Assembly: GCA_050740435.1 (NCBI GenBank)
Contig: JBOIDL010000001.1
Span: 5,484 to 69,483 of the forward strand
Direction of reading: 5' to 3'
Length of the DNA stretch: 64,000 nucleotides
From: Gammaproteobacteria bacterium
Lineage (GTDB): Bacteria > Pseudomonadota > Gammaproteobacteria > JACCXJ01
The stretch's first letter is position 1. The number at the start of each line of letters is the position of its first letter. The notes beneath the pieces were generated by a model. The model made no database searches. It worked only from the letters and a program-made list of their open reading frames with translations, and had not been told where the DNA came from. Below are positions 4,750-52,731 of the stretch, one piece after another. The translations under genes were made by a program, and so were the position numbers.

Positions 4750-5945
4750 GACCGGAGCGCCTGCACGTAGCGCGCTAACAATTCTCGCCCCGCCCGCAAT
4801 TCCTCCGCGTAGATCCGCTCGAACACCGCCCTGTCAGGCACGTATCCCTTCTTTATCGAGCTGAAATACGCACACAGGGTTTTGCCCAGGGCATAGGTCA
4901 CGCCAGCGGTGTACACCGAGGCGACGGCTGTCCCGTACGCCGGGATGAACTTGATGATCTCCCTGCCGCCCCAGCGCAAAAGATAGCCCAGGCCCAGGGC
5001 GCTCGCGATCTCGGCAACGCGCTGGCGGTTGAGCTCCTGATTATAGATAGAGGCAATGGCCTGCAGCATCTTCGCCTGCAGTGACAATACGAACGGGACG
5101 CTGACTATCGGGATCGGAATCGCCTCCAGACCTCCGGCGAGGAAGGCATAGGTCAGGATGTGGGGGTGGGCGGTCCGGGCATAGATGTCGCGGAGCTGTT
5201 CCACGTGTTCAGTGCTCTGGAAGAGCGCCCGTAACCCCAAAGGCAGGGCGGCCTCGATCGCCGCCCATAATGCGTCGAGCCCGTAATGGACCGGCGCATA
5301 GCCGTCTTCGGGCAAGGTGAAATCTAGCGCCACAAAAGCCGCCTCGATATCGGCAAACCACTCCCGCTGCTTACCGAGCGAGCGTGCAAGATCCTTGGGC
5401 ACGGTCGGCGGCCAAGGAGTGCTGGCATAGGGATAGGGATCGAGATGCGGCGTAGCCCGGTTGGGATAGCCTTCATGCAGAGTGGTCTGAACCACGATCA
5501 CAGGCCACCTTGGGTGTTCCCTCAGGATCGCCCGCAAGGCCTGTAACACCTCCTGTTGCGCGTGATCCATCGCTCTCATCACGACCATCAAGAGATGCGC
5601 CTGCTGCCCGAATAAACGCATGTCCTCGGTCGGGTCGTAATGGACCTCGCCCAGACCCCGGGTGTCCAGGAAGCGGACGAAACAGTGCGTTGTGTCGGGG
5701 AAGTCGTAGTGGCGCGCGGTACGCGTGCAGGGTTGGAAGCCGTTGCCGATGGCGGCATCGTCGCGGCCCGTGAGCGCCCGGATCAGGGCGCTCTTGCCGG
5801 ACTGGGCCTTGCCGAGCACCCAGATCACCGGGACCGGCAGCGTCTGTTTGATGGCGTCGAGTTTTTCCGCCAGTTTTCTCTCGCTGATCTTGGGCGTGAA
5901 GATCGCCCTGGCCAGGGCATCGCGGAACTGTGTAGCTGTTGCCAT
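4746..5945 (-). CDS. P-loop GTPase with C-terminal membrane hairpin (DUF697/YcjF-like or DUF3482-like), unknown function
   Basis: 399 aa; N-terminal G-domain VIWVLGKAQSGKSALIRALTG, DTRG; C-terminal segment with two hydrophobic helices (…AIPIPIVSVPFVLSLQAKMLQAIASIY…). Confidence 0.55.
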   Translation of the reverse strand: MATATQFRDALARAIFTPKISERKLAEKLDAIKQTLPVPVIWVLGKAQSGKSALIRALTGRDDAAIGNGFQPCTRTARHYDFPDTTHCFVRFLDTRGLGEVHYDPTEDMRLFGQQAHLLMVVMRAMDHAQQEVLQALRAILREHPRWPVIVVQTTLHEGYPNRATPHLDPYPYASTPWPPTVPKDLARSLGKQREWFADIEAAFVALDFTLPEDGYAPVHYGLDALWAAIEAALPLGLRALFQSTEHVEQLRDIYARTAHPHILTYAFLAGGLEAIPIPIVSVPFVLSLQAKMLQAIASIYNQELNRQRVAEIASALGLGYLLRWGGREIIKFIPAYGTAVASVYTAGVTYALGKTLCAYFSSIKKGYVPDRAVFERIYAEELRAGRELLARYVQALRS

Positions 5946-13971: not shown

Positions 13972-15441
13972 TTATAGGCAACTCCCGTTAGTGCATACGA
14001 CGTCGTTAAACGTGGCGGTGGCGTTAACCGCTGTGAACGAATCGTCCATCGTCGGAGGGAGCGGCGTAGCATTATCATTTTCCAAGTAATTACTAACATT
14101 GCCCTTGTCAACAGCGGGATCGGTCCTAGGCTGGTCAACTGCTACGCCCGCGAGTCGTTTGCCCGCTGCGATAACGATGGTTTGTCTATTAGTGAGCGGA
14201 GCAAAGGGAGGCGGCCGATTAACGGTAAGGCAAGTGCTGGACGCGCAACTAGGTGGTGCAGAGCTAGTAGGCTTGTATGCGTCGGCCACTCCGTAAAAAA
14301 TTAACTCTTTCCAGTTAAGCCACCAATTGGTGCCCGCATCGACATTACAAGTGGTAGGCCAAGAACCGGTCATACCAGCGCTTTCGGTATCGTCAAGTTG
14401 TTCTGGTACGCGCCCGAAACGCGTATCGGTGGTGTCGTCGTAGTTCGGCGACGCCCCCCCTATCGGCACGGCCCACGGAGAGCGGCCTGAATTCGCGGGA
14501 TCCACAGCGTAATCTCTAAGGCACGTGAGCACTTCCGCCACGACTCGCTTTTCCAATAATGGCATTAGATCCTGATATGCTATCGGAAGCAATCTATCGT
14601 TAACAATCGCGTTACCGCTGCCATCAAAGACCTCGCCTTGGATAAATCCATTTGTCCTGCTTGAAATTGTATTTCCATCATAAAAGTTACCATTATCCTC
14701 CGTGAGCGTTGCATCAAGGTAGTTTTGCGGATCGCACCTCGGTGTCATAAATGGGAAAGGCGTGGTACAAACATCGCTTCCAGTCCGATCCTGATCGGTA
14801 CCAGATCCCCGCCTCAACACTGTTCCGGGTGCGAATAGGACGGCTATCGCACCGTTCCGCGCTAACGGATCTGAGTTGCTCGCGTCATATATCACAGTAT
14901 CGTTAGCGGTTCGGACGGTGATCCTTCCCTGTGCATCGCTGTTTAGACATCCAGATGAATCAGCATCAGGGTCGCTGGGATTGCAATTATACCGAGTGTT
15001 ATTTTTGAAATTTACTGAGATTGCGTACCACAAGCGTTCGCCGGCCCCATCGCGCAAATCTTGCAGTCCGAGTGTCTTCCAAGGCAAGCGCCCTAACCGT
15101 GTCCAGGAATCCGTTGCGACAGGGGGATAAGGCCCACAGGCTGATTCAGCAAAACCGTCGTTATTTCGATCAGGACAAGGCAAATCGCCGGGCCGCACAC
15201 AATCAATATCTGTTTGGTCTATGCAAGCGGGATTTAATAGTCCACTTACCGCATATCCAATTAAAGCCGCTTTCGCCTCCGCCAACGCACTCGCCGTCTG
15301 CGCGTCGCGGTAGGATTGAGTCGCCGCCGCGTTTAGCCCTCTAAGCAAAACAAATGCAGCCCCGGTTACAAGAATAAGGAGGAATGCGACGAGGGCAAAG
15401 CCGGAATGTTTTTTAATAGTGCGTCTTGCAAAACCGTTCAC
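13972..15441 (-). CDS. Pilus assembly protein with PilX-N-like N-terminus (MshP/PilX-like), large secreted/periplasmic domain
   Basis: 489 aa; N-terminal …KHSGFALVAFLLILVTGAAFVLL… (PilX_N-like hydrophobic segment) followed by a Gly/Asp/Thr-rich beta-type region. Confidence 0.45.
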   Translation of the reverse strand: MNGFARRTIKKHSGFALVAFLLILVTGAAFVLLRGLNAAATQSYRDAQTASALAEAKAALIGYAVSGLLNPACIDQTDIDCVRPGDLPCPDRNNDGFAESACGPYPPVATDSWTRLGRLPWKTLGLQDLRDGAGERLWYAISVNFKNNTRYNCNPSDPDADSSGCLNSDAQGRITVRTANDTVIYDASNSDPLARNGAIAVLFAPGTVLRRGSGTDQDRTGSDVCTTPFPFMTPRCDPQNYLDATLTEDNGNFYDGNTISSRTNGFIQGEVFDGSGNAIVNDRLLPIAYQDLMPLLEKRVVAEVLTCLRDYAVDPANSGRSPWAVPIGGASPNYDDTTDTRFGRVPEQLDDTESAGMTGSWPTTCNVDAGTNWWLNWKELIFYGVADAYKPTSSAPPSCASSTCLTVNRPPPFAPLTNRQTIVIAAGKRLAGVAVDQPRTDPAVDKGNVSNYLENDNATPLPPTMDDSFTAVNATATFNDVVCTNGSCL

Positions 15442-15455
15442 AATACCGATCCCAT

Positions 15456-15715
15456 CATGCCAGCGAAAGCTGGCATGCAGTCGTTATTAAAAACGCCCGG
15501 ATTCCAGCTCGCGCTGGAATGACAATGTGGCGATGGCCCCGCATCCACATAGGCTTCAATGTCATCATTCGTTTGAAACCGCGCGCCAGTTGTACCGCGA
15601 ACGGGCATAATTTTCCTAAGCATGGATATGACCCCCATATCACCGTCACCCCGGCGGACGCCGGGGTCCAGTGCGGCGCATGAAGGCTCGCCTGGATGCC
15701 GGTTTTCACCGGCAT
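15456..15715. repeat. Cluster of related short hairpins (REP-like) in a 410-bp intra-operon spacer of the pilus cluster
   Basis: CATGCCAGC-gaaa-GCTGGCATG (15456-15477), ATTCCAGC-tcgc-GCTGGAAT (15501-15520), CCCCGGCG-ga-CGCCGGGG (15649-15666), ATGCCGGT-tttc-ACCGGCAT (15696-15715). The first and last are reverse-orientation versions of one another with compensatory AGC/GCT to GGT/ACC changes. Confidence 0.45.
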
Positions 15716-15851
15716 GACGGAGGACAAAACGTAGATTATGACCGTTGCCTGTATACACAAGCCTGGACATGCGTATTGACCGATCTCGCTAACGTCTTGG
15801 TAGACGACCCGTCCTTAGTACCGGCGGTGGCCCGCGGAAAGCCCGCTCTAT

Positions 15852-16364
15852 CTACCGGGGCGACCCCGATGCCGGCGATGCGCTATCCGATGCCGCCTCG
15901 GCGTCGTTTGTCTCTTGATACAAATCAACCACGCGCGAAGCGGTCGGGTCGAACGTTTGACCGGGTTTCAAGCCAACTCCCACGGGAGAGTTCTGGACGC
16001 GAACCGGCACGGTTTGGCCGCGGATGCCTCGGACGTTAACATCGACCTGCTGCGATCCAAGGTCGCCCGTTAACGAATTGGTGCCGTTGATCCAAACGGT
16101 ATTGTCCCCGCGAGACCGCGATACGAAGCCGTCTACTCTGACACTTTGAACCGGGGGCGGCTCCGGTGCGAGGGCTTCAGGCTCCAGTGGCTCGGCCGGC
16201 GCTTCAGGGCTTGGGGGCTGATTCCGCAAGGCTTCGAGCCTCTGCCGCTCTTTCGGTGTCGTGAATAGGCGGCCGAGATCATCCGCGCGAATGCCGGGGC
16301 TCAGGAGCCCGAGCCCGACTAATGCAATGATTGTTTTCATGGCACGCCTCTTTTGCTTACCCAC
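15852..16364 (-). CDS. Secreted Pro/Ala-rich protein with signal peptide (MshK/PilP-like small pilus-biogenesis component, tentative)
   Basis: 170 aa, cleavable signal peptide (MKTIIALVGLGLLSPGIRA), proline-rich linker, beta-rich C-terminus; position within the msh-like operon. Confidence 0.4.
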   Translation of the reverse strand: MGKQKRRAMKTIIALVGLGLLSPGIRADDLGRLFTTPKERQRLEALRNQPPSPEAPAEPLEPEALAPEPPPVQSVRVDGFVSRSRGDNTVWINGTNSLTGDLGSQQVDVNVRGIRGQTVPVRVQNSPVGVGLKPGQTFDPTASRVVDLYQETNDAEAASDSASPASGSPR

Positions 16365-16406
16365 ACTTTACAAAAATTATCGCATTCAATGTAGGATGGG
16401 TTAGCG

Positions 16407-16523
16407 GCGTTGTTTGCGGCGTAACCCACCAACCTGACAAGCGTAGCTTGTCTCCTGACGCCTTTGCGGTATAACGAGTCGGCGTCCCGCCGACAGGATG
16501 GTGGGTTACGCCGCAAACAACGC
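16407..16523 (-). ncRNA. Structured RNA element in the 5' leader of the 15852..16364 gene: 24-bp perfect long-range stem enclosing nested hairpins
   Basis: Arms CGTTGTTTGCGGCGTAACCCACC (16408-16430) and its exact reverse complement (16500-16522) enclose GTCGGCG-gga-CGCCGAC and GACAAGC-tac-GCTTGTC hairpins. An AT-rich promoter-like stretch (16540-16640) lies upstream in the direction of transcription. Confidence 0.35.
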
Positions 16524-16656
16524 GGCTCTCAAGAAACACATTTTAAGTGATTGATTTTAAGTATATAACAAATTGATGTGTTTCTTTGTAAACGCCTTCC
16601 GTCACGGGCGGTTATTCAGCTAACCCGCCCTACATTTTGATACATTTTGCTAAGTT

Positions 16657-17277
16657 CTAAAGATCGATCCTCGCGCCGCTCGCGAGGCTTAGAGTAAACC
16701 AAAGCAAGTCACATTCCGCCTTGACGTTTTCCTCATCCGGATCCTCGGCGACTACATTTTGCGCCCGCTTGAGCGTACATTCCTTTACGGTATAGATCCC
16801 CGGCGCCTTCTCATCGAGATCTTGCAGCAAGGATGCAAGATCGGTCTCGTGTAACAACCCGAGGTCCAGTTTCATCGTGCTGGTACTGACTTGATAAGCC
16901 CCTGTAACAAGCGGAAACGCCGGGCTATAAGGTTCGCGGGAGGTGATCTCATAACGCAGGCCGGGAAGTTTAAGTGTCGCCGCGGCGTTTTTGAGGGTCT
17001 CCACCCAATCCAAGCGCATTTCATCTCCGACAATCCCGCGCCGGTATAGATTGACGAACCGCGGATACAGCTCTTTGATGATAAGCTCGTCCTGATCCAC
17101 CGACAGGTACTTGCGGCTTACCTCCAGAAACGTCTGGTTGTTGAGCCGATGGTCCTCCGCCATCTCGTCGCGGAAATAACCGCTGGCAATGATAAGCAAG
17201 GCGCTGATGATGAATGCTACCACCAGCGCCGCGAACGGCGCCCTCAACTGCGGCCATTCGATGTCAACCGTTCGCAT
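16657..17277 (-). CDS. PilO/MshJ-like bitopic pilus assembly protein
   Basis: 206 aa, single N-terminal TM (FAALVVAFIISALLIIASGYF) followed by a coiled-coil and periplasmic domain; start overlaps the upstream PilM/N-like gene. Confidence 0.5.
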   Translation of the reverse strand: MRTVDIEWPQLRAPFAALVVAFIISALLIIASGYFRDEMAEDHRLNNQTFLEVSRKYLSVDQDELIIKELYPRFVNLYRRGIVGDEMRLDWVETLKNAAATLKLPGLRYEITSREPYSPAFPLVTGAYQVSTSTMKLDLGLLHETDLASLLQDLDEKAPGIYTVKECTLKRAQNVVAEDPDEENVKAECDLLWFTLSLASGARIDL

Positions 17278-18856
17278 CTTCGGCTCCGAAAACGACCCGC
17301 AACGAGAACGCCGCTTTCTCGGGTATATTTAGGTCCTTGGTATCACCGCGCATTTGGCCGCTCGAGCGAGTATCGAGCGGGAGGTTCGCAGCCGTGACCG
17401 AATGGGCTTGGTACTTCGACCGCAACACGTCGCCGAAGCGGTTGATCTGATCTAAAGCGGCCCGGTAATTCCCGTCGAAGGGATAGACATTGGCGGTGAT
17501 CTCCGCGATTTCATAGTAACTGGGCGTTTGACCCGTGCGTGGAACGGGTGGCGCCTGCGGGGCGGCGGCGCCCGCGCTCGCTTGCGGGTCGGTGCTCACC
17601 GTCCACTGGATTTCTTCCAGCCGCAGGGTGGGGAAACCAGCGAGCGCCTGCCCGAGGACCCCCATCCGGCCGAGCGGCGCCGCTTTGTGTTGAGTAAGCG
17701 TATCGACGATGTCCACGGCGGCCTTGATATCGGCGGGGCTGACCGCGGTGGGAGGCAGCCGTCCTTTTTCCTTATCGTAGCGAGCTTGATAGAACGTGGC
17801 TTTTTGTGCCGCATCCCGAGCCAGTTGCCTGACCGACACGGCTTCTATCAGGTTGAACCAGCTCCACAGAGCGCTGCCGAGCAAGGCGATGACGCTCGCC
17901 GCATACAGACCGGCGCGGGTTTGGTGCAGCGTATAGTAACGGCGTTCTTCATTCGAGGCGAAATGGTTCTTCGGTTGGGTGCGCAGCAAGAGGTGCACGA
18001 AGATATGATCGCTAAACGGAGTGGTGAGCACTCCGTGGATCCCGAGACGCCTGGCGACATCGGCGACGTCCAGCAAGTGATAACGTACCGTTTCCGTGTT
18101 GCGGCACGCTTGCTCCAACTGGTCCAATGATTCGCCATGCGCGAGGATATAGGTATCGAGCGGCTCGCCTTTTAGGAGCTGCACGCTGGTGAGGTAGCGC
18201 TCGAACTTCCCCAGCTCCCCGAGGATATACGGGGCGAAGGGCACCGTGCCAAGCCTGGGCAGCTTGGCGAGCCGGCTCATCTTGAGTATCCGGTCGTTGA
18301 AAAAGGACTGCCGCAGCCCGCTCGACCCCTGCATGGTTACGAGCAGCACATGCCGAGACGGGACCTTCATCTTAGCGAGAAGTGACGCGCTTAGAATCGG
18401 CAAGGAGTAGATGCCCGCCAACGCAACCTTGTTTTGGGTGCAAAGCCGGACCCAGGGGATCACGATGTCCGGGTTGACGATGGCGGTGAACATAAGCTTG
18501 TCGTCGCGGCGGCCCTCCGCTTCACGCCCTTGCATCATGACGTGGCAATAAGGGGTGCCGCGGAAGAACCAGGCCTGCTTGCGCTCGATGACCGCTTGAC
18601 GGTCGGACCCGTAGAGATGCGGTATGTTTTCGTGACGGTATTCTTCTTCGACGACGTCGACCATCAGATAAATGGGAACCTTTGGCGTTTCCCTCAGATA
18701 GCGTTCAAAATTGGCCAGCCCGACATCATCGACATCAAACACGAAGGCGTCGGCAATGCCGCCCTTATCCCACTGATAGACCGACACGCCATCGGAGGCG
18801 ATGCAGAGGGCGCGCCGGCGCGCGGAGCTAAAACTTGATCTTAGTGATGAGATCAT
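17264..18856 (-). CDS. MshI-like protein (PilM-like actin-fold N-domain fused to PilN-like TM/periplasmic segment)
   Basis: 530 aa; central TM (LYAASVIALLGSALWSWFNLI) separates a cytoplasmic about 330-aa domain from a periplasmic coiled-coil domain; position and architecture as in msh/pil operons. Confidence 0.5.
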   Translation of the reverse strand: MISSLRSSFSSARRRALCIASDGVSVYQWDKGGIADAFVFDVDDVGLANFERYLRETPKVPIYLMVDVVEEEYRHENIPHLYGSDRQAVIERKQAWFFRGTPYCHVMMQGREAEGRRDDKLMFTAIVNPDIVIPWVRLCTQNKVALAGIYSLPILSASLLAKMKVPSRHVLLVTMQGSSGLRQSFFNDRILKMSRLAKLPRLGTVPFAPYILGELGKFERYLTSVQLLKGEPLDTYILAHGESLDQLEQACRNTETVRYHLLDVADVARRLGIHGVLTTPFSDHIFVHLLLRTQPKNHFASNEERRYYTLHQTRAGLYAASVIALLGSALWSWFNLIEAVSVRQLARDAAQKATFYQARYDKEKGRLPPTAVSPADIKAAVDIVDTLTQHKAAPLGRMGVLGQALAGFPTLRLEEIQWTVSTDPQASAGAAAPQAPPVPRTGQTPSYYEIAEITANVYPFDGNYRAALDQINRFGDVLRSKYQAHSVTAANLPLDTRSSGQMRGDTKDLNIPEKAAFSLRVVFGAEDANG

Positions 18857-20030
18857 AGATCGGGCCCAGTACCGATAAGGCCACCCAGCCTAAAAGCACT
18901 CCGAGCACCAGGGTCATCGCCGGTTGTATGACGGTCTGCAGGCGCTCGATCGACTCGCGTACGTCGCGCGTGTAAAAATAGCTTACGTTTTGCAACGCGG
19001 TCTCGAGCCCCCCGGTGTTCTCGCCCACCCGGAGCATCCGCAATACCAAGGCAGGAAACAAGCCGGTGGCCGCAAAACTGTTGCTTAGGCCGGCGCCGTC
19101 GCTGATGTGACGGGCGGCGCTCCGCAGCGCCTCTTCGATGGCTTTGTTGCCGGCGATCTCCTCGGCCACTTTCAAACACTCCAACACCGTTATCCCAGCA
19201 GCATACATGAGGGCAAAGTAACTGGCTATACGCGTCAGTATAAGTTTCTTGATGATCTGCCCGAATAACGGGATGCGCAGCACGGCGGCATCGAAGGCGA
19301 CATGAAACGCCGGGCTGCGCTTAATCCCGATCAGGATAAGGCTGATGATTAAGACAGGTACTGATACGAATACATACCAAAACTCGACCACGGCATTGGA
19401 GGTGAAGATCAGCACCCGCGTGTGCAGCGGCAGCTCCTGTCCCATTGTCTGAACGAATTTTAGCAGCTCGGGGACGACCAGAATCATCAAAAATACTAAA
19501 GCCGCCAGCGTGATCACGGCGACAAACGCCGGGTACATGAAAAGGCGCTTGGTATAGGCCGCTTGTTCGTCCTGCCACTTCAGGTTTTCGATAACGTTTC
19601 TTAGCACCTGGGTGATCTGGCCCGTGGTCTCGCCGGCTTTGATGAGATTGACGAACACCGCACTAAACACATAGGGAAAATCCCGCATGGCTTCCGAGAG
19701 ATTCTTGCCGCCTTGTATGGACTCGATCATGGCCGAGGTGATTTCCTGGAACCGCCGGTGATCGAGCGTATCGCGCAAATCCGTCAATGCATCGAGCATC
19801 GGCACCCCCGCCTCCAGGAGTTGTTCGAGGTGGAGGCAGAAGGTAATCAAGTCCTTGCGCTTGATACCCGCGCCCGCCGACAAACGAGTCGCTTGAACCT
19901 CCTTGCAATTAACCAGCTCCAATCCGAGGCGGCCGAGGCGCACTTCCAGATCGACCGGGTTGAGCGCATCAAGCTGCCCCTTGATGATGCGGCCGCCGGT
20001 GTCGACGGCTTTATATTGGAACAGATCCAC
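18828..20030 (-). CDS. Type II secretion/type IV pilus platform protein (GspF/PilC/MshG family)
   Basis: 400 aa; duplicated T2SSF domains with the characteristic conserved segments (…GLFPALVLRMLRVGENTGGLETAL…), 3 TM helices. Confidence 0.85.
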   Translation of the reverse strand: MDLFQYKAVDTGGRIIKGQLDALNPVDLEVRLGRLGLELVNCKEVQATRLSAGAGIKRKDLITFCLHLEQLLEAGVPMLDALTDLRDTLDHRRFQEITSAMIESIQGGKNLSEAMRDFPYVFSAVFVNLIKAGETTGQITQVLRNVIENLKWQDEQAAYTKRLFMYPAFVAVITLAALVFLMILVVPELLKFVQTMGQELPLHTRVLIFTSNAVVEFWYVFVSVPVLIISLILIGIKRSPAFHVAFDAAVLRIPLFGQIIKKLILTRIASYFALMYAAGITVLECLKVAEEIAGNKAIEEALRSAARHISDGAGLSNSFAATGLFPALVLRMLRVGENTGGLETALQNVSYFYTRDVRESIERLQTVIQPAMTLVLGVLLGWVALSVLGPIYDLITKIKF

Positions 20031-20032
20031 GA

Positions 20033-21733
20033 TTAGACGCGTTCGGTCAGGTCCACCACGCGCGACACCTCATCCAAGCTCGTCGTACCATCGACGATGC
20101 GGGCGATCCCCGCCTCGGCCAGCGGCTTGAAGCCGCGTTCCAACGCGCACCGGGCGATGTCGCGCATGGTCGCGCCCCGGGCCACGAGCTCGTCGAGGTC
20201 CGGATCGAATTTCAGGACCTCCATGATGGCGGTTCTGCCTTTGTACCCTTGCTGTTCGCAGTAGCCGCAACCGCTCGCGCGGTAGAGTAGAGGCCCCACG
20301 GCTTGCAATCCGAGCAAGCGGCGCTCGACATCGGTGGGGGCGTAAGGTTGCTTACATTTGGCGCAAAGTTTCCGCACCAGGCGCTGCGCCATGATACCGA
20401 TGATGTTTCCGGCCATGATATCGGGCCGGATCCCAAGATCGAGGAGCCTCGGTACGGCCCCGACCGATGAGTTTGTGTGCAAGGTCGAAAATACTTGGTG
20501 TCCGGTCATGGCCGCGCGAAAGGTCATGGAGGCCGTATCCTCGTCGCGGATCTCTCCGACCAGGATGATGTCCGGGTCTTGCCGCAGCATCGACCGTACC
20601 CCGGTCGCGAAATCGAGCCGCACCGATTCGTTCACCGAGGTTTGGCGGATCAAAACCATCGGATATTCCACCGGGTCTTCCAAGGTCATGATATTGGAGG
20701 ATTCGGTGTTGAGGTGATTCAACAACGAATAGAGTGTGGTGGTTTTCCCGCTTCCGGTCGGTCCGGTGATGAGTATAATGCCTTCGGGGCGCGCCACCAT
20801 CATGCGCAGGCGGTTCAACACCTCGGGATCCAGTCCGAGATCCTCCAAGGGAACGAGGCCCTTCTGACGGTCGAGGACTCGCAACACGATGTTCTCGCCG
20901 TGGACCGTGGGCATCGAGGAGACCCGAAAATCGATGGGCCGGCCGGATAAGGTCAAGGAAATGCGCCCGTCTTGGGGGGCGCGCGTCTCCGCGATATCGA
21001 GGTCCGCCATTACCTTTAGGCGCACGGCGATGGCGGACCAATAGTTTTTGTGCAGGCTCCTCACCTGGCGCAATACCCCGTCGATACGGTAACGAAAGCG
21101 TAAAAACCCTTGCTCGGGCTCGAAGTGGATGTCGGAAGCGCCGCGTTTGACCGCATCCGAGAGCAGCGCGTTGACCAAGCGCACGATGGGTTGACTGTAA
21201 GCCTCGCTTTCCGGGTCGAGGCTGTCATAGTCTATCTCCCCGGTTTCGATCTCCTGCAATATGCCATCGACGGATAGCTCGAAACCATAGAACTGATCGA
21301 TGGCCTTCTCGACTTCGTTTTCGCCCGCCAGTAGCGGGACGATCTCGACGTCCCCCCCCAGCAGCGCGTTCAATTGGTCCAGGGCGACGACATTAAAGGT
21401 GTCGGCCATCGCCACGGTTAAACGGTTTCGGTGGATATCGTAGGTGAGGGGAAGGACGCGGTAACGCCGCGCCATTTCCTTGGGAAGCAGCTTGATGGCT
21501 TCGCTTTCCACGACGACATTGGAGAGATCCGTGCTCTGCTGACCGAGCGCGCCGCCCACGACATCGCGAATGACGGCCTCGGTGGCGAAACCGAGACGTA
21601 CGAGAATCTTGCCGAGGTGCTCCTTGCGCTTTTTCTGCTCCGTTAACGCAATCCGTATTTGATCCGCACTGACAACACCCTTAAGTACCAGCAGTTCCCC
21701 GATGCGGCTTGGCGGCTCCTTGGTGAGATTCAC
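20033..21733 (-). CDS. MshE-type pilus assembly ATPase (GspE family) with N-terminal MshEN c-di-GMP-binding domain
   Basis: 566 aa; N-terminus has tandem MshEN motifs RIGELLVLKGVVSADQIRIALTEQ and HLGKILVRLGFATEAVIRDVV; C-terminal Walker A GPTGSGKT, Asp box, His box, and tetracysteine (CAKCK…CGYC). Confidence 0.9.
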   Translation of the reverse strand: MNLTKEPPSRIGELLVLKGVVSADQIRIALTEQKKRKEHLGKILVRLGFATEAVIRDVVGGALGQQSTDLSNVVVESEAIKLLPKEMARRYRVLPLTYDIHRNRLTVAMADTFNVVALDQLNALLGGDVEIVPLLAGENEVEKAIDQFYGFELSVDGILQEIETGEIDYDSLDPESEAYSQPIVRLVNALLSDAVKRGASDIHFEPEQGFLRFRYRIDGVLRQVRSLHKNYWSAIAVRLKVMADLDIAETRAPQDGRISLTLSGRPIDFRVSSMPTVHGENIVLRVLDRQKGLVPLEDLGLDPEVLNRLRMMVARPEGIILITGPTGSGKTTTLYSLLNHLNTESSNIMTLEDPVEYPMVLIRQTSVNESVRLDFATGVRSMLRQDPDIILVGEIRDEDTASMTFRAAMTGHQVFSTLHTNSSVGAVPRLLDLGIRPDIMAGNIIGIMAQRLVRKLCAKCKQPYAPTDVERRLLGLQAVGPLLYRASGCGYCEQQGYKGRTAIMEVLKFDPDLDELVARGATMRDIARCALERGFKPLAEAGIARIVDGTTSLDEVSRVVDLTERV

Positions 21734-26467: not shown

Positions 26468-27450
26468 TAATGGCCTAAAAGCTTCTCGACCGCGTCCCGT
26501 TCTTCTTCCAGTTCCTTGCGGGTGATCTCCATGCGCGCGCGGCTAAACTCATCGATGCCGAGACCCTGGACAATGCTGTAGCCGCCGTCCCGCGTGGTCA
26601 CAGGGAATGAATAGATCAAACCGGGCGCAATGCCATAGCTCCCGTCACTCGCAACCGCCATGCTGGTCCAATCATCCGCCGGGGTTCCCATCACCCAATC
26701 GCGCATGTGCTCGATGGCCGCATTCGCGGCTGATGCCGCGCTCGAGGCGCCGCGCGCGGCGATAACCTCCGCTCCCCGTTTCGCGACCCGAGGAATGAAT
26801 TCATCCGCTAACCAGCGCTGCTCTATCGAGTCCTTGGCCGGCCGGCCGCGAATCAAGGCGTGGCTGATGTCGGGATACTGGGTGGTCGAGTGATTCCCCC
26901 AAATGGCTAGTTTCCTGATTTCCGTGACTTTGCAGCCGGCCTTTTGCGCCAACTGGGCGATGGCCCGATTGTGATCCAAGCGCGTCAGCGCCGAGAAGTT
27001 CGTCGCATTGATGTCCGGAGCGCTGCGCATTGCCGTTAAAGCATTGGTGTTCGCTGGATTGCCGACCACCAATACCTTGACCTCTCGCTGCGCGTGCTCA
27101 TTGAGGGCCCGGCCTTGTATCTGGAAGATCCCCCCGTTCGCGGCGAGTAGATCGCTGCGCTCCATGCCGGGACCACGGGGCCTGGCGCCCACGAGCAAGG
27201 CATAGGCGGTTCCCCGAAACGCGACCTTGAGATCGTCGGTAATGACGACGTCATCGAGAAGCGGAAACGCGCAGTCCATCAGCTCCATCGCGACGCCTTC
27301 CAGCACCTTCAAGGCGGGCGTTATGTCCAGTAACCGCAAGCATACCGGCTGGTTCGGTCCCAGCATCTCTCCGGCGGCGATGCGAAACAGCAATGCGTAA
27401 CCGATCTGGCCGGCGGCCCCAGTGACCGTAATTTGCACGGGTTGCTTCAT
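26467..27450 (-). CDS. mdh: Malate dehydrogenase (NAD-dependent, LDH-like 327-aa type)
   Basis: N-terminal Rossmann [17 protein letters not shown], catalytic …[12 protein letters not shown]…; full-length. Confidence 0.9.
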
Positions 27451-27468
27451 TGGCTCTCTCGCTTTTTA

Positions 27469-27611
27469 GGGAAGCTTACAAAAGTCACTGCGCAGCCCAT
27501 CTGCTTTGTCGCGTGCTCGCTCGTCGCTCGCCTATCTACCTGATATGTCTCGCGACTCGCTCCGCGGCTTCGCGCATCTGGGCTTGCTCGCGACACTTTT
27601 GCAGAGCTTCC
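27469..27611 (-). mobile_element. MITE-like element family A, full copy (about 143 bp) with imperfect terminal inverted repeats GGGAAGCTTACAAAAGT … ACTTTTGCAGAGCTTCC
   Basis: Its ends are inverted repeats of each other, and its core is the reverse complement of 951-1023. It is flanked by TTA on both sides (27466-68 and 27612-14), and the right TTA is the gltA stop codon (TAA, minus strand). Confidence 0.5.
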
Positions 27612-28913
27612 TTATTTTCTTTTTGCGACCGGCACATAGTCCCTGGTTTCGGAACCGATATAGATCTGGCGGGGACGTCCGATGCGGAAATCCGCATCCG
27701 TGATCATCTCCATCCACTGCGCCAGCCATCCGGCGGTCCGCGCTATGGCAAACAACACCGTGTACATACGGGTCGGTATTTCGAGCGCCTTGAGAATGAT
27801 CCCGGAATAAAAGTCCACGTTCGGGTAGAGTTTCCTCTCGATAAAATAGTCATCTTCCAGCGCGATGCGCTCCAGCTCCATGGCGATTTCGAGCATGGGC
27901 CGATGCGCGCCCGCGCCCATGGCGTCGAGGACGGCGTGACACGCCTTGCGGATAATCGCCGCGCGCGGGTCGTAATTTTTGTAGACGCGATGCCCGAATC
28001 CCATCAATCGATACGATCCATCCTTGTCCTTGGCGCGATCGACATACTTGCGTACGTTTTTAATATCCTGGATCTCTTCAAGCATATGCACGACCGCCTC
28101 GTTCGCGCCTCCATGTGCACGCCCCCACAAGGTCGCGATGCCCGCCGCGATACAGGTATAGGGGTTGCTCTCGGTGCTCCCCGCGAGCCGCACCGCGGAG
28201 GTGCTGGCGTTTTGCTCGTGATCGGCGTGCAGGATGAACAGCAGATCCAAGGCGTATACGGCGACCGGATTGGTGACAAAAGGTTGCGAAGGCTGCGCGA
28301 ACATCATCTGCATGAAGTTTTCTATGTACCCCAGGGCGTTGTTGGGATACACAAAAGGCTGGCCGACGCCATACTTGTAACACTTGGAAGCGATGTTCGG
28401 CATCTTCGCCAGAATACGGCGAGCGGTCGCATCGCGGTCACCCTGGTCGTAAATGTCAATCGAATCGTGGTAATACGAAGCCATCGCGCCGATCACGCCG
28501 ACCATGATGGACATCGGATGCGCGTCGTAGCGGTACCCGCCGTAGAATTTTATCAAGTGCTCGTGCACCATGCTGTGCTCTTTGACGGACGAATCGAATT
28601 CCGCCATTTGCCGGGCCGTCGGCAGTTCGCCATAAATCAGCAGGTACGCTACTTCCAGGTAGTGGCTGTGCTCGGCCAATTGCTCAATCGGGTAACCGCG
28701 GTACAACAAGATCCCCTTGTCGCCATCAAGGAAAGTAATGGCGCTACGGCAGCTTGCGGTCGTGACGAACCCGGGGTCCAAGGTAAACATCCCAAGCTCG
28801 CTGTAAAGGCGATTGGTATCGATGACGGCAGGCCCGTAAGTGCCGCGATAGACCGGACATTCGATCGTTTTACCGGTAGTATTGTCCCTAATCGTTACCG
28901 TGTCGGCTGTCAT
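27612..28913 (-). CDS. gltA: Citrate synthase (type II)
   Basis: Conserved citrate synthase motifs (…[14 protein letters not shown]…, …[19 protein letters not shown]…). Start set to the ATG at 28913 ([11 protein letters not shown]), which has an aggaga RBS; the longer ORF to 28985 is unlikely. Confidence 0.9.
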
Positions 28914-44726: not shown

Positions 44727-44759
44727 AACGATAGCAGGCCTCCTTTTACGGTCCGCTGA

Positions 44760-44902
44760 GAGTTTGCGAAAAAACCGTCGCGAGCGAAGGGAGGTCGCGT
44801 TCCGCCGGAGCGCAGGAACCGGAGTGTATGTTGGAATACATGAGGATTCCGAGCACCGCCGGAATGCGAGATCCCGAGTGCAGTAGGTTTTTTCACAAAC
44901 GC
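44760..44902 (+). mobile_element. MITE-like element family B (143 bp) with about 17-bp terminal inverted repeats GAGTTTG(C/T)GAAAAAACC and 3-bp target duplication TGA
   Basis: About 93% identical to the reverse complement of 51492-51634; perfect-ish TIRs; TGA at 44757-59 and 44903-05. Sits between the pckG stop and the small coiled-coil gene start. Confidence 0.65.
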
Positions 44903-50582: not shown

Positions 50583-51491
50583 ATGCAAGTAGAACGCGCG
50601 ACGGTCACGGCGATCGAAACAGCGCCGTGGGCCCGTAACTGGCTTAACTGCTTGCCGCTGTACCTGTTGCCTCACCACGCCTTGTCGCGCTTGATGCTGG
50701 TTGCGACACGCCTGCGTTTTCGACCGTGGAAAGATTGGCAAATTCGGTGGTTTATCCGCCGTTACGGGGTCGATATGGACAGCGTGGCCGAATCCGATCC
50801 GCGCGTCTACCCGGAATTCAATAGCTTCTTTACCCGCGCGCTCCGAGCCGATGCGCGCCCGATCGCGCCCGACCCTTGCTCATTGGCGTGCCCCGTCGAC
50901 GGTAGCGTGTCCCAACTCGGCGATCTCCGAGACGGGTCGTTGCTCCAGGCCAAAGGACAGCACTACAGTGTGTCCGGTCTGCTGGCAAGCATGGAGGCGG
51001 GAGCGTTCTTGGGGGGGCATTTCATCACCTTGTATTTAGCCCCGAGAGACTACCATCGAGTGCACATGCCAGTCACCGGGCGCCTGGTCCGATCGGTTCA
51101 TGTGCCGGGGCGCTTGTTTCCGGTGAAACCCAGCACGGTCCTGGGAATAAACGATCTCTTTAGCCGCAACGAGCGCATCGTTTGCCTGTTCGAAACCCAC
51201 GCAGGCCCGCTTGCGCTCATCATGATAGGCGCCATGTTCGTGGGCGCGATGGACCTTGTGTGGCGCCACGGTGGTGCGATGCACACGGCCGCGCGTCGTA
51301 TCTGCGTCTACGAACAACCCGAATCCTGCCCGGTGATCCTAAATCAGGGCGAGGAGATGGGCCGCTTTAACATGGGATCAACGGTCATCCTGCTGCTCGG
51401 GCCGGGCGCGATCCGCTGGTCGAAAACACTGCAACCCGGTACGCCCGTGACGATGGGGCAATCCATCGGAACCCTCGCCGGCCTGGGCTAA
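50583..51491 (+). CDS. psd: Phosphatidylserine decarboxylase proenzyme
   Basis: 302 aa; PSD motifs (…FFTRALR…, LGST cleavage/pyruvoyl site GSTV in …FNMGSTVILL…). The TAA stop at 51489-91 doubles as the left flank of MITE-B copy 2. Confidence 0.85.
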   Translation: MQVERATVTAIETAPWARNWLNCLPLYLLPHHALSRLMLVATRLRFRPWKDWQIRWFIRRYGVDMDSVAESDPRVYPEFNSFFTRALRADARPIAPDPCSLACPVDGSVSQLGDLRDGSLLQAKGQHYSVSGLLASMEAGAFLGGHFITLYLAPRDYHRVHMPVTGRLVRSVHVPGRLFPVKPSTVLGINDLFSRNERIVCLFETHAGPLALIMIGAMFVGAMDLVWRHGGAMHTAARRICVYEQPESCPVILNQGEEMGRFNMGSTVILLLGPGAIRWSKTLQPGTPVTMGQSIGTLAGLG

Positions 51492-51634
51492 GAGTTTGTG
51501 AAAAAACCTACTGCGCTCGGGATCTCGCGTTCCGGCGGTGCTCGGAATCCTCATGTATTTCAACATACACTGCGGTTCCTGTGCTCCGGCGGAACACGAA
51601 CTCCCTTCGCTCGCGACGGTTTTTCCACAAACTC
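51492..51634 (-). mobile_element. MITE-like element family B, second copy (143 bp), inverted relative to the 44760-44902 copy; 3-bp target duplication TAA
   Basis: TIRs GAGTTTGTGAAAAAACC / GGTTTTTCCACAAACTC; flanked by TAA (51489-91, the psd stop) and TAA (51635-37). The lptF stop codon (TAG, minus strand) spans the junction at 51634-36. Confidence 0.65.
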
Positions 51635-52731
51635 TAAGCCAACGCCTCGCGCCGGAACTGCCGCGCCCACCGCTTGCGCAAGAGCGGATAACCAAGGAGT
51701 GCAAGGATCACAAGGCCTAAGAGCGCATGCACCCACCATAAACCCAGATACACAGGCACGGCGCCCTGCTCGGCCAAGGTCTTCGCGATCCCCAAGAGAT
51801 TGCTGTAAGTGAAATAAATCAAGACCGCGCTCAAGAGCCCGAGGATCCGGTTCTGGTCAGATGCCGCTCGCACCAGCGCCACCGCGAGGAGCGTCAACAG
51901 CACGGTACTGATCGGCATTGCGATTCGCCACTGCAACTCAGCGGCCGCCTCCGGCGTGTTAGCCGACCACAAGCTTGCGGTGCTCGCCGCGCTCGCGCGC
52001 TCGCTCCCGTCCGCCGCCTCACTGCGGTCGATACGCACGCCGTATTTCTCGTACTCGACAATGGAATAATCGAGCCGTCCCGGGGAGCCCATATAGCGGC
52101 GCCCGGCGTAAAAGTTCACATAGCGAGATCCGGTTTTCTGGTCGAGCTCGATTTCCGCTCGGTCAGCGGCAAGCACCCCGAGGTGGCTGTCTTGCCGCCC
52201 TTGCAGGAACACATTGGACATGCTGCGCTTGTCGGGAGACAGCCGCTCCACATAGAGGATGCGGTTACCCTCATTGAAATCCTTGAATTGCCCCGGCGTG
52301 ATCCCGGTCAGGTCGGATTCCGATTTGGCCCGGTTTTCCACCTCAATCAAGCGCGCTTCCGCCCACGGCGCGACCGCGAGCGCGAGGATCGCGACGAGGA
52401 GCGCCACGGCGAAAGCAAGTCTGGCCGCCGTATCGAAAAGAAACCGCGAGCCCAAGCCCAAGCTTGCGATGGCGATAAGCTCGTTGTCGCGCGACAGCCG
52501 GTTCAAGGCGACATAGACGCTAATGTAGTGGCACAAGGGCAGCATCAGTACCAAGGAGTTCGCTATCTTTAAGGCCAGCAGCTCGAAGATCAGTCCGCTG
52601 TCGATCTTTCCGGCGGCAGCCGTCGCCAGGTACTGCGCGAAGCGGCTGCTGGCGTAGGTGAGTAATAGCAGGAGTTGCACGGCCCCGAACCACAATAAGA
52701 TCTCCCGGATGAGGTAGCGGTTTAACAGCAT
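51634..52731 (-). CDS. lptF: LPS export ABC transporter permease LptF (YjgP/YjgQ family)
   Basis: N-terminus MLLNRYLIREIL… (LptF/LptG-type start), 6 TM helices with a large periplasmic loop, divergent from pepA as in E. coli and Pseudomonas. Start trimmed to the ATG at 52729-31; the longer ORF begins at a GTG. Confidence 0.75.
   Translation of the reverse strand: MLLNRYLIREILLWFGAVQLLLLLTYASSRFAQYLATAAAGKIDSGLIFELLALKIANSLVLMLPLCHYISVYVALNRLSRDNELIAIASLGLGSRFLFDTAARLAFAVALLVAILALAVAPWAEARLIEVENRAKSESDLTGITPGQFKDFNEGNRILYVERLSPDKRSMSNVFLQGRQDSHLGVLAADRAEIELDQKTGSRYVNFYAGRRYMGSPGRLDYSIVEYEKYGVRIDRSEAADGSERASAASTASLWSANTPEAAAELQWRIAMPISTVLLTLLAVALVRAASDQNRILGLLSAVLIYFTYSNLLGIAKTLAEQGAVPVYLGLWWVHALLGLVILALLGYPLLRKRWARQFRREALA

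Follow-up and report, generated by a model that had tools for sequence, protein, structure and literature searches.

A long-stem element within a type IV pilus-like gene cluster is most probably a composite copy of a dispersed GTAG-tagged REP doublet

Introduction

Does a long, perfectly paired stem immediately ahead of a gene in a type IV pilus / T2SS-like cluster belong to a regulatory leader of that gene, or is it a copy of a mobile repeat? The question is raised by a 316-nt gap on the minus strand of the window (the whole 64-kb stretch of gammaproteobacterial DNA that was analysed), which separates an ORF of 206 amino acids (16657-17277) from one of 162 amino acids (ATG at 16340). A sequence-only reading of this gap had listed four possible roles for the stem, namely an RNase III processing site, a transcription attenuator, a ligand-sensing leader and a miniature inverted-repeat insertion. 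The last of these is the one borne out here, as many copies of the element lie elsewhere and the gap is polymorphic in relatives. The best explanation, to which a probability of roughly 85% is given, is that the gap contains one copy of a non-coding repeat that is dispersed in related genomes, a head-head dimer of GTAG-tagged REPs that resembles the miniature mobile elements known as REPINs.

The genes of the cluster lie on the minus strand. Ahead of the element come a secretin, a TPR protein, a T2SSE ATPase that bears an MshEN domain, T2SSF and two proteins without an assigned family; after it follow a small secreted protein and prepilin-like proteins. Neither flanking protein matches a Pfam or NCBIfam family even at E ≤ 5; the pilus context is drawn from the neighbours (Secretin, MshEN-T2SSE, T2SSF and N_methyl).

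The signature of a GTAG REP, as given by Di Nocera et al. (2013; PMC3733652), is an unpaired terminal GTAG beside a palindromic stem-loop of 20-40 nt. Two such REPs with their GTAG termini on the outside are termed a head-head dimer, and the same paper describes homodimers, heterodimers and structured spacers. The REPIN of Bertels and Rainey (2011; PMC3116915) is the same object as the GTAG head-head dimer.

Anatomy of the element

The long-stem structure is real and far exceeds what chance would produce. The 24-bp perfect long-range stem and the 117-nt element that had been seen by eye were recovered by a repeat finder, which placed inverted arms of 34 nt at 16403-16436 and 16494-16527 with 94% complementarity. 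The perfect core of these arms is 25 bp (GCGTTGTTTGCGGCGTAACCCACCA), with 16523-16499 pairing with 16431-16407, and it delimits the 117-nt element on the minus strand (16523-16407). The two nested perfect hairpins were likewise recovered inside the long stem, at 16494-16478 and 16452-16436 with 7 bp each. Folded as RNA, the 117-nt element has a minimum free energy of -83.4 kcal/mol, as against -45.8 ± 3.9 kcal/mol in 200 shuffled sequences (z = -9.66), and none of the 200 shuffles folds as well. A 22-mer from the arm occurs at two sites in the 64-kb window, both of them the arms themselves, where zero are expected by chance, and neither a pattern search allowing three mismatches nor word-7 blastn found a further copy of the family within the window.

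The true unit is larger than 117 nt. It spans 247 nt from ATGTAGGG (16635) to CCTACAT (16389), limits that follow from the conserved flanks in an orthologous locus (L046, see below) and from an outer inverted repeat. The unit starts 21 nt past the stop codon of the upstream gene (16657-16659) and ends 48 nt short of the ATG of the downstream gene. Folded as single-stranded DNA, it reaches -72.5 kcal/mol (z = -11.1) with its outer ends paired. The GTAG-REP motif is found near both ends, as GTAGGATGGGTTAG at 16391-16404 on the plus strand and as GTAGGGCGGGTTAG at 16620-16633 on the minus strand. The component parts of the unit and the flanking genes are collected in Table 1.

Table 1. Coordinates of the repeat unit, its component parts and the flanking genes in the window
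Feature	Position	Strand	Evidence or remark
Upstream gene, 206 aa, without Pfam domain	16657..17277	-	in type IV pilus / T2SS-like cluster
Whole repeat unit, composite GTAG-REP cluster, 247 nt, ATGTAGGGCGGGTTAGC ... GCTAACCCATCCTACAT	16389..16635	-	outer inverted repeat 16388-16405 / 16619-16636; GTAG-REP motifs; flanks in L046 orthologous exactly to the boundaries
REP-1, GTAG tag plus palindrome GTAGGGCGGGTTA-GCTGAA-TAACCGCCC	16606..16633	-	recurs with identical following sequence at the unrelated locus L013
Inner hairpin AAGAAACACAT / ATGTGTTTCTT with AT-rich loop 16542-16575 (the earlier 'promoter-like' stretch)	16531..16586	-	repeat finder; alignment with L013, 37 nt extra in the window
Left arm, 3' two-thirds of REP type A (GCCGCGTTGTTTGCGGCGTAACCCACC); GTAGGGTGGGTTA half missing or displaced	16494..16527	-	repeat finder; family alignment
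Spacer hairpin 1, GTCGGCG-GGA-CGCCGAC; family form GTCGGC-N5-GCCGAC conserved	16478..16494	-	folding; family alignment
Spacer hairpin 2, GACAAGC-TAC-GCTTGTC; family position GGCCCGC-TGCG-CGGGCC, stem kept, sequence different	16436..16452	-	helix 4: 3 pairs changed on both sides
Right arm, complete inverted REP type A, plus-strand reading GTAGGATGGGTTAGCGGCGTTGTTTGCGGCGTAACCCACC	16391..16430	+	orthologous to right REP of L046 and L051
Downstream gene, 162 aa, signal-peptide-like N-terminus, AAGAGG ribosome-binding site 8 nt before ATG	15852..16340	-	ORF and sequence

Other repeats are present in the window. The next intergenic region downstream (15441-15852) looks like another REP-like cluster, different from the first: it contains four or more small GC-rich palindromes (GCCGGTGAAAACCGGC, CCCCGGCGTCCGCCGGGG, TTCCAGCGCGAGCTGGAA and GCCAGCTTTCGCTGGC), and spurious ORFs across it read 'IPARAGI'-type motifs. 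At 27467-27634 (with a partial copy at 941-1025) lies an element of about 165 nt that folds upon itself as a single long hairpin (27440-27660, -74 kcal/mol); copies that are 94-96% identical occur in both orientations at locus L035 and a partial one at L031, and this is apparently another MITE-like family. A long-hairpin element of about 145 nt with the ends GAGTTTGCGAAAAAACC...GGTTTTTTCACAAAC is present in opposite orientations at 44759-44898 and 51491-51635, and has copies about 95% identical at L003 and L008. At 242-538, units such as CGACCCGAGCGGTTCGAGCGGATTGAACGCCTAGTG are repeated in tandem at spacings that alternate between 27 and 9 nt; this is probably a repetitive coding segment. The presence of these other dispersed hairpin repeats implies that the genome is simply rich in such elements.

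A dispersed repeat family in related genomes

Copies outside the window were sought with an 18-mer from the arm, used as an exact word against one genome per species; because the MAGs are fragmented, the copy numbers per genome are lower bounds. The word matched 47 loci, about 36 of which lie in about nine related MAGs of uncultured Gammaproteobacteria, with 1-6 loci per MAG. The 11 matches in other groups (Streptomyces, Chloroflexota, Myxococcales and others) were set aside as chance words, since about 17 would be expected by an estimate from the size of the collection and the family profile fails beyond the word itself. One locus that shares the 18-mer by chance (L047, Xanthobacteraceae) carries GTAG-tagged palindromes (GTAGGATGGATTAGC...) at about 4780-4900, apparently of a different REP family.

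With an nhmmer profile of the family, 37 copies were recognised among the fetched loci in addition to the copy in the window. They are 140-163 nt long (about 150), end in ATGTAGGGTGGGTTAG...AACCCACCCTACAT, and have flanks that are unrelated from locus to locus. Of the 37, about 30 comprise the full doublet and 6-7 break off after the first spacer hairpin; the GTAG tag with its palindrome (GTAGGGTGGGTTAGCCGCGCTGTTTGCGGCGTAACCCACC) is present in about 30 copies. The layout begins with REP A (ATGTAGGGTGGGTTAG-CCGCGCTGTTTGCGGCG-TAACCCACC), followed by AACCC, hairpin 1 (GTCGGCC-GCAG-GCCGAC), a spacer of about 25 nt and hairpin 2 (GGCCCGC-TGCG-CGGGCC), and closes with GAGTC and an inverted REP B (GGTGGGTT-GCGGCATAAACAGCATGCCG-AACCCACCCTACAT). 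In each REP a structured loop (GCCGCGCTGTTTGCGGCG or GCGGCATAAACAGCATGCCG) is closed by a stem (GGTGGGTTA / TAACCCACC), the two REPs face each other over about 75 nt of spacer that bears the two small hairpins, and the terminal inverted repeats of the element measure 14-16 nt. As for an extragenic location, 16 of the 37 copies are spanned by no stop-free frame of at least 100 amino acids; the others are spanned by frames of 108-276 amino acids (825 at L011), which may be spurious in DNA this rich in GC. The copies in the window, in L046 and in L051 and L052 all sit between called ORFs.

Evidence that the fold itself is maintained comes from an alignment of 20 sequences. The RNAalifold consensus consists of four local hairpins that correspond to REP A, hairpin 1, hairpin 2 and REP B, and 95.9% of the cells at consensus pairs are paired, a proportion that drops to 37-46% once partners are displaced by 1-3 columns. 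Both partners have changed in seven pairs, compared with 2.0 ± 1.1 in shuffles (none of 500 shuffles reaches seven), and these compensatory changes are concentrated in hairpin 2 and REP B. The pairing and the compensatory changes together indicate that the ability to form hairpins has been maintained, a signal that would be the same whether the hairpins act in single-stranded DNA or in RNA.

Judged from these sequences, the repeats are probably a new family of a well-known kind, the likeness to the published GTAG families being one of described anatomy.

The orthologous gap in relatives

Sequence conservation across orthologous pilus clusters, as would be looked for in a leader, is contradicted in seven relatives. 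The closest is a Chromatiales MAG from Frasassi (L046), which retains the same gene order and is 92.6% identical to the window over 16620-19530 (2.9 kb of flanking genes) and 86% identical over 15776-16434. Its gap holds a canonical 147-nt heterodimer whose junctions (ATCAAA|ATGTAGGG and CCTACAT|TGAA) and right-hand REP match the window while the interior is different. Homologues of the upstream protein that are 87-89% identical were found on six metagenome contigs (L048-L053). Two of these, L051 and L052, carry a 122-nt version that shares the right junction and is inverted relative to its flanks, the spacer aligning to that of the window with 54 identities in reverse complement as against 38 in the same orientation.

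In the remaining four (L048, L049, L050 and L053) the profile finds no family element in the gap; the surrounding sequence also differs, and so there is no clean 'empty site'. In these four contigs the downstream ORF apparently begins about 27 nt past the upstream stop codon, and about 15-150 nt beyond the end of the match there is a longer downstream N-terminus with other GC-rich palindromes of the CCCCTCGCCCC / GGGGCGAGGGGG type. On the sequences compared, palindromic insertions seem to recur in this gap, as at a hot spot.

The signs of mobility are thus twofold: presence or absence at an orthologous site at similar divergence, with the caveat that no clean empty site is available, and copies at unrelated loci. 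The conserved junctions (ATCAAA|ATGTAGGG ... CCTACAT|TGAA) show no evident target-site duplication. By this comparison of sequences the site is polymorphic among close relatives in the presence, orientation and content of the element, as expected of a REP or REPIN insertion and the opposite of what a functional leader would display. Absence from orthologs also argues against a required role as RNA.

Why the copy in the window forms so long a stem

Most copies of the family are heterodimers in which a type-A REP and a type-B REP have different loops, so that the ends can pair over long range only in blocks of about 14 and 9 bp. The window copy has type A on both arms, and it is this homodimeric state that gives rise to the perfect 25-bp and near-perfect 34-bp long-range stem. 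The only other homodimer in the family is the copy at L042. The window copy has also gained material between its outer GTAG and the type-A loop, in the form of an extra REP-like hairpin (16633-16606) and a second hairpin with an AT-rich loop. This composite left part (REP-1 plus the inner hairpin) recurs in another MAG at L013, an unrelated locus, minus 37 nt of the AT-rich loop.

The search for a mobilising transposase

REPs of the published kind are associated with Y1 (HUH) tyrosine transposases, termed RAYTs. No cognate RAYT flanked by REPs of the present family (GTAGGGTGGGTTAG) came to light in the window and the roughly 330 kb of loci retrieved. A search for the HUH...Y..NP pattern in six-frame ORFs of all the fetched DNA yielded one Y1 transposase gene, at L043, which belongs to the same MAG as L046; an HMM built from the best 120 of its 2581 homologues (E ≤ 1e-20 in a database search) recovered no further Y1 gene in the window or the same 330 kb or so. 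The L043 gene is frameshifted, and hairpin 1 with an inverted REP A lies 60 nt downstream of it, a single REP on one side only. Its product matches Pfam Y1_Tnp with 50 bits, and the best NCBIfam match is REP_Tyr_transpos with 43 bits, under the cut-off of 80. Homologues in three neighbourhoods of three other genomes (L054-L056) have inverted repeats of their own (TAAAGGGGCCAGGCTCG) and no REP of the family, which suggests that the adjacency at L043 may be incidental.

Flanking inverted repeats of their own, here a GGGG-containing one (TAAAGGGGCCAGGCTCG) just before the start codon, are a feature that the L043 gene and its homologues share with the TIRYT or 'TIRtron' Y1 transposases described in PMC3733652. 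As this repeat is unrelated to the REP of the window, the transposase is probably not the mobiliser of the family, and it is not put forward as such in view of a REP on one side only, a RAYT score below the cut-off, and homologues with unrelated inverted repeats. At L043 (6940-7780) and at about 1940-2010 in L054, L055 and L056, a conserved TAAAGGGGCCAGGCTCGATATATTTG stands right before the start codon and an inverted copy past the gene. At L043 an upstream reading frame runs straight into the TAAAGGGGCCAGGCTCGATATATTTG motif, and the element may interrupt a gene.

Weighing the alternatives

The transposase results bear on whether the element could be a MITE of another transposon class, or a palindrome derived from the ends of an IS200/IS605-type element, with the GTAG tags a coincidence. 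The missing REP-flanked RAYT in the fetched DNA, the 14-16-nt terminal inverted repeats and the fact that the one Y1 transposase beside a copy is of the TIR-flanked type would all be in keeping with such an origin. Nevertheless, it is improbable, because no target-site duplication is evident at the junctions and the L043-type terminal repeat TAAAGGGGCCAGGCTCG is unrelated to the ends of the element, both of which consist of GTAG plus a palindrome, the REP signature given in PMC3733652.

With regard to regulation, a dedicated cis-regulatory RNA leader (a GEMM-like riboswitch or an attenuator) governing the downstream pilus gene is suggested by the position of the element, which lies between two pilus / T2SS-like genes and 48 nt before a start codon, and by the great stability of the predicted RNA structure. 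The further evidence speaks against it and makes it very improbable indeed. The suggestion of a ligand-sensing leader or GEMM riboswitch found no footing, as Rfam returned no match at E ≤ 10 in the 1.5 kb from 15800 to 17300, leaving GEMM-I/II and all other curated cis-regulators unmatched, and a scan of the whole window at gathering thresholds returned one tRNA only. An attenuator finds no support in a stem with no T-run after it; a terminator scan called none at the element, the closest T5 run being about 28 nt past the base of the stem. The sequence recurs at about 37 unrelated loci, and in orthologous leaders the gap is without the element in four relatives and rearranged or inverted in three, which tells against a regulatory leader in general. 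As for cyclic di-GMP, the T2SSE ATPase of the cluster (20033-21733, minus strand) has an N-terminal MshEN domain that scores 60 bits. The MshEN domain is a c-di-GMP receptor, and an input of c-di-GMP to the pilus is therefore more plausible through this protein than through a riboswitch.

The sequence-only reading had also placed the stem behind an AT-rich, promoter-like stretch at 16540-16640. The AT-richness is confirmed, although over a shorter interval (about 16531-16590, inside the larger repeat unit), but the promoter is not: a scan of 15700-17400 for sigma-70-type consensus promoters called none, where about one would be expected by chance. The label 'promoter-proximal' is thus without support, the AT-rich part being a 37-nt insert in the repeat that is specific to the window and has no second copy in any fetched locus. 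It is improbable that the downstream genes are transcribed from an internal promoter in this insert. The insert is AT-rich at 16542-16578 and holds TATACT and TTAAAAT, with the ATG about 200 nt downstream of it; against this stand the lack of a sigma-70-type match in a region where chance alone would give about one, and the absence of the insert from L013, L046 and all the other orthologs.

A different matter is exaptation, that is, an element of mobile-DNA origin whose 25-34-bp duplex now serves as an RNase III site or a 3'-exonuclease barrier and uncouples the upstream from the downstream genes of the operon. RNase III needs roughly two helical turns, and the perfect duplex of 25 bp is at or above that length. 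The element lies 21 nt past a stop codon with genes on the same strand to either side, and homo- and heterodimers of REPs have been proposed to differ in their sensitivity to endoribonucleases (PMC3733652). However, the long perfect duplex is specific to the window genome, the closest ortholog (L046) having a heterodimer and four relatives nothing, and a duplex that is private to one genome gives no sign of a conserved requirement. Exaptation is compatible with the REP-doublet explanation and is a possibility of fairly low likelihood.

Relationship to known systems and a possible mechanism

The REP-doublet explanation can be set against several described systems. The BIMEs of E. coli, which are pairs of Y and Z REPs, bind IHF or gyrase and confer stability on the mRNA upstream of them, and E. 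coli REPs have been reported to act as RNase III substrates or as barriers to 3'-exonucleases. The present family shares with BIMEs the alternation of inverted REPs, the existence of two types, the defined linkers and the location in operons just past stop codons; it differs in having no sequence similarity to them.

The closest likeness is to the GTAG head-head dimers of Di Nocera et al. (2013; PMC3733652), such as the SMAG elements of Stenotrophomonas and GTAG-1 of Pseudomonas. The features held in common are outer GTAG tags, a GC-rich stem of 9 bp and a structured loop, inverted units 20-100 bp apart with a conserved spacer, the occurrence of both homo- and heterodimers, a distribution mainly in Gammaproteobacteria and a location downstream of coding regions. 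The two conserved spacer hairpins of the present family set it apart to some degree, since that paper describes hairpins of this kind for the CGTC-3 dimers of Agrobacterium and not for GTAG dimers. The REPINs of Pseudomonas fluorescens SBW25 (PMC3116915) are likewise inverted REP doublets which, with their spacer, form one long hairpin in single-stranded DNA or mRNA, and as in SBW25, doublets outnumber singlets in the sample and copies are found at unrelated loci. Unlike the SBW25 REPINs, the present family has no flanking RAYT in the DNA searched, a longer unit (about 150 nt) and spacer hairpins that are kept by compensatory changes.

By analogy with the characterised REP and REPIN systems, units of the family would be copied or excised as hairpins of single-stranded DNA by a Y1 (HUH) tyrosine transposase, and could then be remodelled as inverted arms recombine and gene conversion takes place from copy to copy. 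Excision in the manner of the SBW25 REPINs would join ATCAAA directly to TGAATGCG. If the flanking genes are co-transcribed, their RNA would carry a very stable hairpin with a perfect duplex of 25 bp, and this hairpin could serve as a barrier to 3'-exonucleases or as a substrate for RNase III. Such an effect on the mRNA, if there is one, would most likely be incidental, and the existence of the element would not be owed to it. A more elaborate scenario, in which an undescribed REPIN-type family of an uncultured gammaproteobacterial clade has spacer hairpins, and not REPs alone, that are selected for their structure and required for mobilisation by a further enzyme, and in which the homodimer in the pilus cluster has been co-opted as an RNase III site with its own inserted promoter so as to uncouple the downstream pilus genes, is decidedly doubtful as a whole.

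Significance

The chief value of the analysis lies in correct annotation, in that a stable hairpin before a pilus gene, which could easily be mistaken for a riboswitch or an attenuator, is most probably a REP doublet. The locus also provides a small, clear example of how a repeat evolves in place, a single insertion site being occupied by a heterodimer in one relative, by an inverted copy in two others and by a homodimer with nested additions in the window, while four relatives lack the element there. A consensus of the family could aid repeat masking and the binning of MAGs in this clade, and the family would lend itself to testing whether REPIN mobilisation depends on structured spacers.
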